Assembly: GCF_056712565.1 (NCBI RefSeq)
Contig: NZ_CM160072.1
Strand: one strand, 5' to 3'
DNA: 64,000 nt
Shown: positions 48,001-57,000 of the stretch, piece after piece
How the letters are laid out: each line of letters begins with the position of its first letter
Numbering within the stretch: the stretch's first letter is position 1
Made by a program: the position numbers

Positions 48001-51000
48001 CTTTAAACAAATCTAACATTGGTGGTTGTTATCCTGTGTATCTGGTTTATCAGCGAAAAGTATAAGGGGTAAACAAGGATAAAGTGTCACTCTTTAGCTA
48101 ACCTTGCATCGCATTGACCAAAACTTGAACCGATTTAGCAAAACGTGGCATCGGTCAATTCATTCATTTGACTTATACTTGCCTGGGCAATATTATCCCC
48201 TGCAACTAATTACTTGCCAGGGCAACTAATGTGAAAAATACCAGCGATCTGTTCAATGAAATTATTCCATTGGGTCGCTTAATCCATATGGTTAATCAGA
48301 AGAAAGATCGCCTGCTTAACGAGTATCTGTCTCCGCTGGATATTACCGCGGCACAGTTTAAGGTGCTCTGCTCTATCCGCTGCGCGGCGTGTATTACTCC
48401 GGTTGAACTGAAAAAAGTGTTGTCGGTCGACCTGGGGGCACTGACCCGTATGCTGGATCGCCTGGTCTGTAAAGGCTGGGTGGAAAGGTTGCCGAACCCG
48501 AATGATAAGCGCGGCGTACTGGTAAAACTTACCACCAGCGGCGCGGCAATATGTGAACAATGCCATCAATTAGTTGGCCAGGACCTGCATCAAGAATTAA
48601 CAAAAAACCTGACGGCGGACGAAGTGGCAACACTTGAGCATTTGCTTAAGAAAGTCCTGCCGTAAACGAAAAAAGAGGTATGACGATGTCCAGACGCAAT
48701 ACTGACGCTATTACCATTCATAGCATTTTGGACTGGATCGAGGACAACCTGGAATCGCCACTGTCACTGGAGAAAGTGTCAGAGCGTTCGGGTTACTCCA
48801 AATGGCACCTGCAACGGATGTTTAAAAAAGAAACCGGTCATTCATTAGGCCAATACATCCGTAGCCGTAAGATGACGGAAATCGCGCAAAAGCTGAAGGA
48901 AAGTAACGAGCCGATACTCTATCTGGCGGAACGATATGGCTTCGAGTCCCAACAAACTCTGACCCGAACCTTCAAAAATTACTTTGATGTTCCGCCGCAT
49001 AAATACCGGATGACCAATATGCAGGGTGAATCGCGCTTTTTACATCCATTAAATCATTACAACAACTAGTTGATAACGTGACAACGTCACTGAGGCAATC
49101 ATGAAACCACTTTTATCCGCAATAGCAACTGCGCTTATTCTCTTTTCTGCGCAGGGCGTTGCGGAACAAACCACGCAGCCGGTTGTTACTTCCTGTGGCA
49201 ATGTCGTGGTTGTTCCCACATCGCAGGAACAACCACCGTTTGATTTAAATCACATGGGTACTGGCAGTGATAAGTCGGATGCGCTCGGCGTGCCCTATTA
49301 TAATCAACACGCTATGTAGTTATTGTCAGGCTCTGATCACAGAGCCTGACATTTCCGTAATATCTTCCTGAAGTCTCATATATTTTCGCCATTGTTGGCG
49401 ATGAGATCCCGATACCAGTAAAACGATGCTTTACGTATCCGTTCCAGCGTTCCCTTCCCTTCGTTGTCTTTATCGACATAAATCATTCCGTAGCGTTTTT
49501 TCATTTCTCCTGTTCCGGCAGAAACCAGGTCAATGCAACCCCACGGGGTGTAGCCAATTAAGTCAACACCATCTTCAACTACGGCTTTTTTCATTTCCCG
49601 AATATGGGAGGAAAAGTAATCAATGCGATAGTGATCGTTCACCGTGCCGTCAGCTTGTCTCTGGTCAACCGCACCAAATCCATTTTCGACAATAAACAGC
49701 GGCAACTGGAAATGATCCCAGAACCAGTTGAGTGAATAACGTAGCCCTGCCGGATCAATTTGCCATCCCCATTCGGATGTATCGATATAAGGGTTGCTGA
49801 CCAAATCTCGTGGTTCAACATAATCCAGTTGCGGATTATCTGGCGAAAATTGCGTCGTAAAAGACATGTAGTAGCTAAAGCCGATAAAGTCGACACAACC
49901 TCTGGCAAGAATCGCGTTATCATCTGGTGTGATATCGAGGTTGAATCCTTTCCTTGCAAAGTAATTCAGCATATGTTGCGGATAATATCCACGAGCATGA
50001 ACATCAGTAAACCAGTAACGACGATGCATCGCTTTCGTGGCCATCATCATATCGTTGGGTGCACACGTCAGAGGATAGATGGGGCACATAGCAATCATAC
50101 AGCCGATATTAAATTCAGGATTGATCAGTTTTCCAGTCTGTACCGCCAGGGCACTGGCAACTAACTCATAATGTACCGCCTGGTACATTATTTGTTCGCG
50201 CTCATTGAGATCTTCCTCTGGCGAATACAAGATACCGGAATTAGTAAATGGACACAGGCTTTCGCTGAAATTCACCTGATTATTGATTTCGTTAAACGTC
50301 ATCCAGTACTTTACTTTTGCTTTATAGCGCGTGAAGACCGTTGATGCGAAGTGGATAAAAAAGTCGATCAGTTTACGGTTTCGCCAGCCACCATATTTTG
50401 TCACCAGATGATAAGGCATCTCAAAATGCGAAAGCGTCACCACAGGTTCCATTCCCTGCTTCAGGCATTCATCGAAGAGATCATCATAAAATTGTAAACC
50501 CTCTTCATTCGGCTCCTGTTCGTCACCTTGCGGAAAGATTCGTGTCCAGGCAATGGAAGTTCGAAAGCATTTGAATCCCATCCCGGCAAATAACTGAATA
50601 TCTGTTTTATAGCGATGATAAAAATCAATTGCTTCATGATTGGGATAATTAAGTCCGTCGATAACGCCTTCTGTCACTTCACGCGGCACCCCGTGAGCGC
50701 CAGCAGTCATTACATCAGCGATACTGATGCCTTTTCCTCCTTCATTCCAGCCACCTTCCAATTGATGTGCGGCTACCGCACCGCCCCATAAAAAATCTTC
50801 TTTAAATCCTGACATACACAACTCCTTAACTAAATAGATTACCACCAGACTTCCGCCTGGATGCCGGCCATAAACTCGTCTTTGCTGTTCTCATTAAACT
50901 TAAAATTCGATAATTCGTTATCCAGAATATTGATATACGTCCCGTAGAAGCGAATTTCTGGTCGTGAACCTAAAATACTTTCACCCACTTTCAATGCATG

Positions 51001-54000: not shown

Positions 54001-57000
54001 TTCAAGGTTGGGGAAAATGCTGTTCAGATGCAGTAATCCGGCAATAAAACCGTCGGGCGATAATATGGCAAAGTTAATTAATATAATTAATGAGCTTGCC
54101 ATGATAATTGGAAACGTAAAAACGAATCCATCTCTCACCGCTGCAACATGTTTTTGTGAGTTTAACTTGATAGCAACTGGAACAAGAAAACGTTCCATTC
54201 CACGTTCGAATGATGCCATTAATCCCATTTTTTTATACCTGTTGTTCTGGATATTTATACATCCCAATAAAGCATGTATGCCATATCCATTTTATGATGT
54301 GTGAAAAGTTAGTTCAGGTAATAGTTTAATAATATTAGATTATTACTCTTGCAGTAGTTTCATCGCAAATTCAAGAACTGCCTGTCCGTTCATTGTGCCA
54401 TAGTCTTTCATCTCGATAACGGCTACAGGCATTTTCCCCTGTGCAACGGCTTCAATCTCTGGTTTCTGAAAGCGAACTTGCGGACCAAGTAAAACAACGT
54501 CAACTTCGTTATTTTTAATTTTCCCTTTAGCCTCTGCAATCGCCAATGCGGAAATATTAACTTCAAGTGAAATAGCGGTAGCATGATCAATCATACGTTT
54601 AACCAGCATACTGGTTGACATGCCCGCAGCGCAAACTAACAATATCTTTTTCATATTTTTCCTTACTGGTATATAACAGACTACATTGTGTAAATATCAT
54701 ATCCCACAGTAGCTACACGTCCTGGTACATTGATCACAGTAATACAGCAATAAAGTTGTTCAACAACAGGGTGATAATTAAACGACTCGGCCATACGATA
54801 AACTAATCAGGTCTCAACTCCTTGTTTTCAATGGCTCTTAAAAGGTGCAAAAGTGATTTTTCAAAAGATTGCCCGCTTACTTAAATCCGAGATCAATGGC
54901 AATTCATGGCATGTTGGTGATTTGTTGCCGTCAGAAGCGGAACTCGCTGTTCGTTATAATGTTTCGCGTAATACCCTGCGTAAGGCATTATCCCTGCTGG
55001 AAGGCGAAGGAATTATTCACAGAAAGCATGGTTCAGGAACATACATTCAAAAAAAGAATTTTGTTGCACACATTGATCACATGAACAGTTTCAGTGAAAT
55101 TGCACATAAAAGCGGCAAAGAGGCAGGAAGTCAGATTATGAAATTTGAAGTGCAGGATGCTTCTCCTACTATTGCGACTGAGCTGAATTTAGTGACTGGT
55201 GAGCAGGTTTATTACATAAAGAGACTGCGATTCATTGAGGATAATGCAGCACAATTAGAAGAAACGTGGATGTCAGTGGCACGTTTTCCTGATTTAACCG
55301 TATCGCATATGCAAAAATCCAAATTTTCGTATATTGAGAACGAATGCGGGATCAAAATCATTGGCACCTTTGAAACTTTCTCCCCGACTTTTCCTACCCC
55401 AGAAATCGCCAGTATTTTACGGATCAGCCCACGGGATCCCATACTTAAAATTCAGACCCAGGCTGTGGATAGTAACTCTATTCCGCTGGATTATTCGTTA
55501 CTTTACAGCAATATTTTCGAGTTCCAGGTAAAGTACTTTTTTCCGCGATAAAAGCAGACGCACAGAGTGCTGGCATCACATTCTGTGCGTATGGTTTAGC
55601 CTCTGACCTTTACCGCTTTACGCCACCGCAAGCCAAATACATTGATATACAGCCCGGTCATAATGAGCACCGCACCGAAAAATTGCAGACCCGTTAAGCG
55701 TTCATCCAACAATAGTGCCGCACTTGCCAGTCCAACTACAGGCACCAGTAACGATAACGGTGCAACCCGCCAGGTTTCATAGCGTCCCAGTAACGTCCCC
55801 CAGATCCCATAACCAACAATTGTCGCCACAAACGCCAGATACATCAGAGACAAGCTGGTGGTCATATCGATAGTAACCAGACTGTGAATCATGGTTGCGG
55901 AACCATCGAGAATCAGCGAGGCAACAAAGAAGGGAATGATTGGGATTAATGCGCTCCAGATTACCAGCGACATCACTGCCGGACGCGTTGCGTGCGACAT
56001 GATCTTTTTATTGAAGATGTTGCCACACGCCCAACTAAATGCTGCCGCCAGGGTCAACATAAAGCCGAGCATCGCCACATGCTGACCGTTCAGACTATCT
56101 TCGATTAACACCAGTACGCCAAAAATCGCTAAGGCGATCCCCGCCAATTGTTTGCCATGTAGTCGTTCACCGAAAGTAAACGCGCCAAGCACGATAGTAA
56201 AAAACGCTTGTGCCTGTAACACCAACGAGGCCAGTCCAGCAGGCATACCAAAGTTAATAGCGCAGAACAGAAAGGCAAACTGCGCAAAACTGATGGTTAA
56301 TCCATACCCCAGCAGCAAATTCAGTGGTACTTTCGGTCGTGCGACAAAAAAGATGGCCGGGAAAGCAACCAGCATAAAGCGCAAACCGGCCAGCATCAGC
56401 GGTGGCATGTTATGAAGCCCCACTTTGATGACCACAAAATTTAGCCCCCATACAACCACTACCAGTAGCGCCAACACCCCATCTTTTCGCGACATTCTAT
56501 CGCCTCTGAATTTCATCTTTTGTAAGCAATCAACTTAGCTGAATTTACTTTTCTTTAACAGTTGATTCGTTAGTCACCGTTTACGACGGCATTAATGCGC
56601 AAATAAGTCGCTATACTTCGGATTTTTGCCATGCTATTCCTTTACATCTCTAAAACAAAACATAACGAAACGCACTGCCGGACAGACAAATGAACTTATC
56701 CCTACGACGCTCTACCAGCGCCCTTCTTGCCTCGTCGTTGTTATTAACCATCGGACGCGGCGCTACGCTGCCGTTTATGACCATTTACTTGAGTCGCCAG
56801 TACAGCCTGAGTGTCGATCTAATCGGTTATGCGATGACAATTGCGCTCACTATTGGCGTCATTTTTAGCCTCGGTTTTGGTATCCTGGCGGATAAGTTCG
56901 ACAAGAAACGCTATATGTTACTGGCAATTACCGCCTTCGCTAGCGGTTTTATTGCCATTCCTTTAGTGAATAACGTGACGCTGGTGGTGCTCTTTTTTGC

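Follow-up and report, generated by a model that had tools for sequence, protein, structure and literature searches.

Gene content and boundaries of the marB-eamA segment

The 64,000-nucleotide stretch of contig NZ_CM160072.1 (NCBI RefSeq assembly GCF_056712565.1) that was analyzed here, hereinafter the window, contains, between the convergent genes marB and eamA, an island of 6,274 bp (49322-55595) with six intact genes delineated from the open reading frames (ORFs) and the RefSeq annotation: a regulator gene and, divergent from it, genes for the enzyme II (EII) components of a sugar phosphotransferase system (PTS), a porin and a glucosidase of glycoside hydrolase family 1 (GH1) (Table 1). With high confidence, we identify this segment as the chromosomal bgc locus of Escherichia coli, an already known, self-contained system of beta-glucoside catabolism. 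The E. coli ATCC 11775 chromosome matches positions 49000-56000 of the window at 100% identity. A preliminary description made from the sequence alone had placed six genes in this interval and given about 30 bp for the gap at the same site in K-12; every gene was found where it had been placed, and the stop codons of marB and eamA in K-12 are exactly 30 bp apart, with all six genes absent and with a spacer that consists of a single hairpin (GGCCCCGAcatcTCGGGGC).

Alignment of the filled allele with the K-12 allele places the left breakpoint 2 bases past the marB stop codon, between 49321 and 49322, and the right breakpoint at the eamA stop codon; on the sequence evidence, the K-12 spacer is replaced by the island, not extended by it. 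Among the first ten bases of eamA that are met beyond the breakpoint, 4 positions track the island or empty state rather than phylogroup. The C-terminus of EamA is allele-linked, reading KVRG* in island carriers and in E. albertii, KVGS* in K-12 (locus L002, 1851-1862) and EC958, and QVRG* in Citrobacter koseri; the empty allele retains the ancestral hairpin and yet has a derived eamA end.

Table 1. Features of the bgc locus and its immediate flanks in the window
Feature	Coordinates	Strand	Basis or remark
marB	49101-49319	+	Left flank core gene, outside the island; ORF and RefSeq; K-12 homology continues to 49321
Island left end	49322-49375	.	Perfect hairpin with 12-bp stem at 49324-49351; marB stop to bgcA stop
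bgcA, GH1 6-phospho-beta-glucosidase, 479 aa	49376-50815	-	NF007154
bgcH, LamB-family sugar porin, 557 aa	50839-52512	-	Pfam LamB and Sugarporin_N; signal peptide
bgcI, PTS EIIA, lactose/cellobiose family, 103 aa	52567-52878	-	NCBIfam and structure alignment
bgcF, PTS EIIC, lactose/cellobiose family, 440 aa	52906-54228	-	TIGR00410; RefSeq start taken
bgcE, PTS EIIB, lactose/cellobiose family, 103 aa	54343-54654	-	NCBIfam and structure alignment
bgcR/bgcE divergent control region	54655-54852	.	Cross-genus intergenic alignment
bgcR, GntR-family HutC-type regulator, 232 aa, GTG start	54853-55551	+	Pfam GntR and UTRA
Island right end	55552-55595	.	Hairpin 55558-55590; bgcR stop to eamA stop
eamA	55596-56495	-	Right flank
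Allele-specific eamA 3' end	55596-55607	-	KVRG* in the window vs KVGS* in K-12

The hairpins that had been noticed to bracket the island are real, with the left one placed here at 49324-49351 (-22.3 kcal/mol, z = -7.0) and the right one at 55558-55590 (-23.3 kcal/mol, z = -4.9). Neither carries a canonical T-tract and a generic terminator scan flagged neither; in the generic promoter and terminator scans, the site counts did not exceed those in shuffled sequence. The left hairpin occupies the same junction position in E. albertii and has no counterpart following bgcA in Citrobacter or Salmonella, and the right hairpin has a homologous copy in E. albertii. Inside the operon, the 114-nt spacer between bgcE and bgcF folds no better than its shuffled versions (z = -1.6), so that no attenuator is proposed.

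Protein families encoded in the island

The family, domain and structure-alignment searches agree with each other and bear out the PTS, GH1, porin and GntR identities that had been assigned to the island genes, similarity to these families being readily detected. BgcA scores 1034 bits against the NF007154 model of 6-phospho-beta-glucosidases (cutoff 624 bits) and aligns over the full length with its best solved relatives, 3pn8, 4f66, 4f79 and 4gpn (805 bits), which are enzymes of lactic acid bacteria (Gram-positive) crystallized with various 6-phospho-beta-glucosides. In the comparison with 3pn8, the TFNEIN motif with the acid/base residue E176, the IVENG motif with the nucleophile E377 and the phosphate-binding motif S432-x6-K-x-Y are all conserved; the above-cutoff score, the catalytic glutamates and the Ser/Lys/Tyr motif together place BgcA among the GH1 6-phospho-beta-glucosidases. 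The protein is 50% identical to BglB of K-12.

Among the PTS components, the EIIC protein BgcF exceeds the cutoff of TIGR00410 (334 vs 236 bits). The NCBIfam matches of the EIIA protein BgcI (EIIA-LAC and ChbA-like models) and of the EIIB protein BgcE (pts-lac IIB) all lie under the curated cutoffs. The alignments show conservation of the active-site His76 of BgcI (IHAQDH; aligned to ChbA 1wcr and to 3k1s) and of the phosphoryl-accepting Cys8 of BgcE (LLVCAAGMSTS; aligned to 2l2q, 4mge and ChbB). The EIIC score, combined with the presence of the EIIA histidine and the EIIB cysteine, assigns this transporter to the lactose/cellobiose family of the PTS.

BgcH consists of a LamB domain (Pfam PF02264, residues 147-557, E = 1e-79) preceded by a Sugarporin_N domain (PF11471, residues 30-56, E = 4e-7) and shares 52% identity with BglH of K-12 along the entire protein, the LT[IV]EQRLELLE coiled-coil segment included; a phmmer search of BgcH against solved structures yielded no match at E <= 1e-3. 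With a barrel and a Sugarporin_N domain located after the signal peptide, it belongs to the LamB/ScrY/BglH porins with an N-terminal extension. Thus, the LamB/BglH type given in the preliminary description stands, whereas what was called there a coiled-coil leader is a periplasmic N-terminal coiled-coil extension that follows the signal peptide. BgcR combines an N-terminal GntR winged helix (PF00392, residues 4-65) with a C-terminal UTRA effector domain (PF07702, residues 87-218), the architecture of the HutC subfamily of the GntR family. Its NCBIfam matches, to HutC, PhnF and TreR-type models, are all under the cutoffs; because no equivalog cutoff is reached, BgcR is not a named orthologue such as PhnF, HutC or TreR.

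A cluster look-up of the island proteins returned generic names only, the bgc gene names not being among them. The protein collection clustered at 90% identity assigns the glucosidase (479 aa) and the porin (557 aa) to a single cluster of 14,022 members, which is likely a database artefact caused by a chimeric or fused gene call.

Identity with the published bgc operon

The bgc operon has been described as comprising five genes, including those for the PTS IIB protein BgcE, two further PTS subunits and the phospho-beta-glucosidase BgcA, with BgcR as a divergently encoded, GntR-type positive regulator; activated bgc mutants use cellobiose, arbutin and salicin, and low-temperature dependence has been reported (all in PMC3585215). 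The operon is listed as the fourth beta-glucoside operon of E. coli (PMC4488073). Because the gene content, order and orientation in the window match this description of BgcE/F/I/A and a GntR-type BgcR, we regard the identification, made against the operon as described in citing papers, as well founded. Judged in this manner, there is no detectable difference in the gene set, order, orientation or the divergent GntR-type regulator. For CFT073, a block of six genes, c1955-c1960, listed as a cellobiose-specific PTS, has been reported that K-12 lacks and that is patchily distributed in other strains (PMC2831201). In the CFT073 chromosome, the same six-gene block lies between marB and eamA at 1796169-1802345 and encodes an EIIA, an EIIB and a regulator that do not differ from those of the window, which fits the c1955-c1960 cluster. 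The match to the bgc operon that the preliminary description had proposed is, accordingly, upheld by the EIIB-EIIC-EIIA-porin-glucosidase order, by the divergent GntR regulator, and by the presence of the block at the same site in CFT073 and its absence from K-12.

The 2009 study of Neelakanta, Sankar and Schnetz (Appl Environ Microbiol 75:2284) is said to give the order bgcE-F-I-H-A, with the porin BgcH and a divergent bgcR; bgc was reportedly found there in E. albertii and other enterobacteria, and its expression is said to depend on CRP. The six genes, which carry generic labels in RefSeq, can be safely named bgcR and bgcEFIHA. What is added here to the known locus is modest: the exact ends of the island, the ancestral empty site, the old age and non-mobile character of the insertion, the near 50:50 allele frequency, and a testable prediction of the promoter and operator.

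Control region of the bgc operon

The bgcR-bgcE intergenic region of the window was aligned with those from 20 related enterobacterial loci of other genera (21 sequences altogether). On the minus strand, a CRP-like site is predicted at 54738-54723 (TGTGATCAATGTACCA), followed by a predicted -10 element TATGAT (54701-54696), a transcription start near 54689 and a ribosome-binding site at 54664-54659; the center of the CRP site is 41.5 nt from the predicted start, that is, at -41.5. Further upstream, on the same strand, lies a conserved GTT(C/T)A-N16-TGAAC element (54783-54758), and GTTCA-N16-TGAAC is a candidate BgcR site near -81. TGTGA does not vary across the 21 sequences, and conservation is also seen in the -10 block and in the GTTCA..TGAAC arms; within Escherichia, neither the CRP block nor the -10 block differs, and the spacer varies. 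These elements are predicted to constitute a CRP-dependent promoter of class II, aided by an activator bound upstream, in agreement with the reported positive control by BgcR. The bgcEFIHA operon would then be read leftward from this promoter under the control of the divergently encoded, HutC-type BgcR, an activator according to the literature.

Proposed pathway, substrates and related systems

Family membership and the conserved catalytic residues suggest a pathway in which a beta-glucoside would cross the outer membrane via the BglH/ScrY-like porin BgcH and would be imported, with phosphorylation at O-6, by the lactose/cellobiose-family PTS. The phosphoryl group would be relayed from EI/HPr to the EIIA protein BgcI (His76), then to the EIIB protein BgcE (Cys8) and, finally, to the sugar bound in the EIIC protein BgcF, after which BgcA (Glu176/Glu377) would cleave the phosphorylated product, yielding glucose-6-phosphate and glucose or an aglycone.

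Several points weigh against this interpretation of the locus. The CRP pattern on its own occurs in the window at the chance level (33 found, 30 expected), so that the prediction of the site rests on cross-genus conservation, and the consensus promoter scan missed the predicted bgc promoter. The EIIA, EIIB, porin and regulator proteins are under the curated NCBIfam equivalog cutoffs, so that those models assign no substrate specificity. The operon is reported as cryptic, and insertion sequence (IS) elements or frameshifts are present in the bgc locus of some strains. Finally, the substrates, the activation by BgcR and the low-temperature dependence come from a citing paper (PMC3585215).

In line with some of these points, the same machinery could serve a different natural substrate, such as gentiobiose, sophorose, laminaribiose, mannobiose-type glucomannan fragments or another plant glucoside, with growth on cellobiose, arbutin and salicin reflecting a weak side activity that would account for the cryptic appearance of the operon. 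The scores of the PTS components and the porin under the curated specificity cutoffs are compatible with this possibility, and so is the range of the closest solved GH1 relatives (3pn8, 4f66, 4f79 and 4gpn), which are associated with several different 6-phospho-beta-glucosides; furthermore, purifying selection is strong in the genera compared, which implies that the operon, although cryptic in the laboratory, has a real function. BgcR also resembles GmuR, the regulator of the glucomannan operon of Bacillus subtilis (PMC3585215). Given that activated mutants are reported to use cellobiose, arbutin and salicin (PMC3585215), we consider a different natural substrate unlikely, albeit a possibility to be taken seriously, and retain the reading of bgc as a system for these beta-glucosides.

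Comparison with characterized systems shows how the components of bgc are combined elsewhere. The K-12 bgl operon (bglG-bglF-bglB-bglH) is, similarly to bgc, a cryptic beta-glucoside PTS with a GH1 enzyme and a dedicated LamB-family porin that has the same N-terminal extension; however, its EII, BglF, is a single fused protein of the glucose family, and its regulator, BglG, is an antiterminator that binds RNA (K-12 annotation), in contrast to the split, lactose/cellobiose-family EIIB, EIIC and EIIA and the HutC-type DNA-binding regulator of bgc, and it occupies another chromosomal site. The K-12 chb operon (chbBCARFG) shares with bgc the split EIIB/EIIC/EIIA organization and the PTS family, with BgcI resembling ChbA and BgcE resembling ChbB and with conservation of the respective His and Cys residues, but the bgc proteins are well under the Chb equivalog cutoffs. 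The chb operon also has an AraC-type regulator, ChbR, and a GH4 hydrolase, ChbF, and lacks a porin. The bgu system of Streptococcus pneumoniae with BguR, which has been reported to be similar to BgcR (PMC3585215), and the gmu system of B. subtilis with GmuR likewise combine a lactose/cellobiose-family PTS with a GH1 enzyme and a HutC-type regulator; unlike bgc, they include no outer-membrane porin, and their regulators are repressors, whereas BgcR is reported to be an activator (PMC3585215).

Ancestral state, age and origin of the island

The marB-eamA interval is empty in C. koseri and E. fergusonii, and the hairpin in the 32-bp spacer of C. koseri (GCCCCG..CGGGGC) is homologous to that of K-12; the empty outgroups and the homology of the hairpins imply that the empty allele is ancestral and the island is a true insertion. 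In E. albertii, the island is flanked by eamA and marB and has both junction hairpins; these shared flanks and junctions point to the same insertion event. Divergence at four-fold degenerate sites between B2 and B1 E. coli is the same for the island (65/803) and the flanks (53/651), namely, 0.081, and between E. coli and E. albertii it is 0.54 for the island and 0.43 for the flanks. Island divergence that is at least as great as that of the flanks indicates an old insertion, one that predates the diversification of E. coli. The amino acid identity of the island proteins (83-95%) is indicative of purifying selection on the respective genes.

The same R|E-F-I-H-A layout is found in E. albertii, in Citrobacter sp. 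On2M, beside tkt/maeB, and in Salmonella enterica subsp. diarizonae, beside nfsB, with the porin searched in one genome per species. Rearranged variants are present in Kluyvera, Raoultella, Enterobacter, Cedecea and others, and Citrobacter, Enterobacter and genera of the Klebsiella group hold homologues. The annotation of E. albertii CP117628 leaves a 1.75-kb gap without a called porin gene.

The reverse polarity, whereby the K-12 state would result from secondary deletion of an ancestral Escherichia locus and the island would never have been inserted into K-12-type sequence, could draw on the synonymous divergence, which dates the island to the split of E. coli and E. albertii, and on the end of EamA, where KVRG* of the island allele matches E. 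albertii, the final VRG* matches C. koseri, and KVGS* of K-12 is derived. Nevertheless, deletion appears quite improbable because the hairpin of the 30-bp K-12 spacer is a homologue of the C. koseri one and could not be recreated by loss of the island. In addition, E. fergusonii also has a hairpin directly 3' of marB, every one of the 2,480 empty genomes shows the same type of junction (97-100% identity), and the cassette is located at other loci in Citrobacter sp. On2M (tkt/maeB) and S. diarizonae (nfsB). Under the insertion scenario that we favor, the cassette would have entered, in an early lineage of Escherichia, the terminator spacer that separates marB from eamA, replacing the ancestral hairpin, and the filled allele now segregates with the ancestral empty allele at about equal frequency in E. 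coli. The term 'inserted' used in the preliminary description is therefore justified with respect to the ancestral state, given that the outgroups are empty and share the hairpin of K-12, with the amendment that the event predates the diversification of E. coli and lacks the hallmarks of mobile elements.

Composition and signs of mobility

The GC content is 42.5% in the island compared to 47.3% in the remainder of the window, and that at third codon positions (GC3) is 0.39-0.45 in the island genes compared to 0.55-0.58 in marC, marR, marA, eamA and ydeE; thus, the island is indeed GC-poorer than its flanks, as had been claimed, and only 6% of the equal-sized segments have a GC content below that of the island. 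Other stretches, within 22001-26000 and 32001-34000, are equally or more AT-rich, so that low GC is not peculiar to the bgc island here; the GC content is 36.9% in the ydeP-safA-ydeO stretch (24-26 kb) and 40.2% in the stretch from 32 to 34 kb.

Neither an integrase nor a transposase is encoded among the six island genes (ORFs and RefSeq annotation), and when repeats were sought around the island, whether direct or terminal inverted ones, only short, chance-level matches were returned; with no integrase, transposase or repeats beyond chance, an origin from a transposon or an integrative element was rejected. Inside the island, Rfam detected neither a tRNA nor any other RNA gene, no dedicated tRNA scan having been made.

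Distribution in the E. coli population

Among the complete E. coli genomes, 2,495 of 5,426 (~46%) have the filled site and 2,480 of 5,426 have a K-12-type junction with 97-100% identity, the remainder being rearranged otherwise. Both states occur within phylogroup B2, where ATCC 11775 and CFT073 are filled and EC958 (ST131) is empty, as well as outside B2, where O121 is filled and K-12 is empty. Polymorphisms in the flanks track phylogroup, not allele state, save for the last ~10 nt of eamA.

The carriers include O121 E. coli that produce Shiga toxin (STEC) and isolates from sheep, chicken, livestock, mouse and sediment, which argues that the bgc locus is no marker of extraintestinal pathogens, a role that is further undercut by the near 50:50 allele frequency. 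The link to septicemic and uropathogenic strains that had been drawn in the preliminary description is weak in the current data, with ~46% of the complete genomes carrying the island; this prevalence, with many non-extraintestinal carriers, is wider than the title of the 2009 report implies.

The core-like divergence of the island, the retained pre-insertion hairpin, the frequency of each allele near 46% in E. coli, and the presence of both alleles within single phylogroups on phylogroup-typical flanks lead us to suggest, tentatively, an unusually old presence/absence polymorphism that might be maintained by long-term balancing selection or by repeated short-tract allele swapping, as opposed to neutral gain and loss. 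By comparison, a recent fitness or pathogenicity island of B2 extraintestinal pathogens spread by a mobile element, a notion to which the GC content lower than that of the flanks, the emphasis on septicemic and uropathogenic strains in the title of the original bgc description, and the fact that CFT073 and the B2 type strain both carry it might lend some appeal, is hardly credible in view of the failure to find integrase, transposase, direct or terminal inverted repeats or, by Rfam, tRNA, the diverse sources of the carriers that make up ~46% of the complete genomes, the absence from the B2 ST131 strain EC958, the between-phylogroup divergence equal to that of the core flanks, and the flanking single-nucleotide polymorphisms that track phylogroup rather than allele state.

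Some copies of the island are decaying. Strain S1 has an IS1 between the EIIA and EIIC genes and a frameshifted porin gene, and strain 2014C-3599 has an IS600 inside the island. In O121 WL1277, the flanking gene marB is frameshifted.

Other features of the window

A second presence/absence difference in the window involves the hipB-tam intergenic region (36666-36972): hipB and tam are ~300 bp apart in this strain, and in K-12 they are separated by ~15 kb with yneO, a pseudogene, and the entire autoinducer-2 operon lsrKRACDBFG. The yde fimbrial cluster (26531-32893) looks complete, with a fimA-like major subunit, a chaperone, a full-length usher of 883 aa and ydeS/R/Q; in K-12, the usher, ydeT, is truncated to 382 aa, and the chaperone and the major subunit are not annotated. 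Between hipA and the yde fimbrial cluster lie genes for a short-chain dehydrogenase/reductase (SDR) family oxidoreductase and a hypothetical protein. The gene upstream of dosP (6669-6833), a remnant of dosC, is annotated as no more than a fragment, 165 bp long, of a diguanylate cyclase domain protein. The sole Rfam match in the 64-kb window is a full-length match to STnc560, an Hfq-binding small RNA, at 58093-58306 on the minus strand (282 bits), beside mgtS/mgtT.

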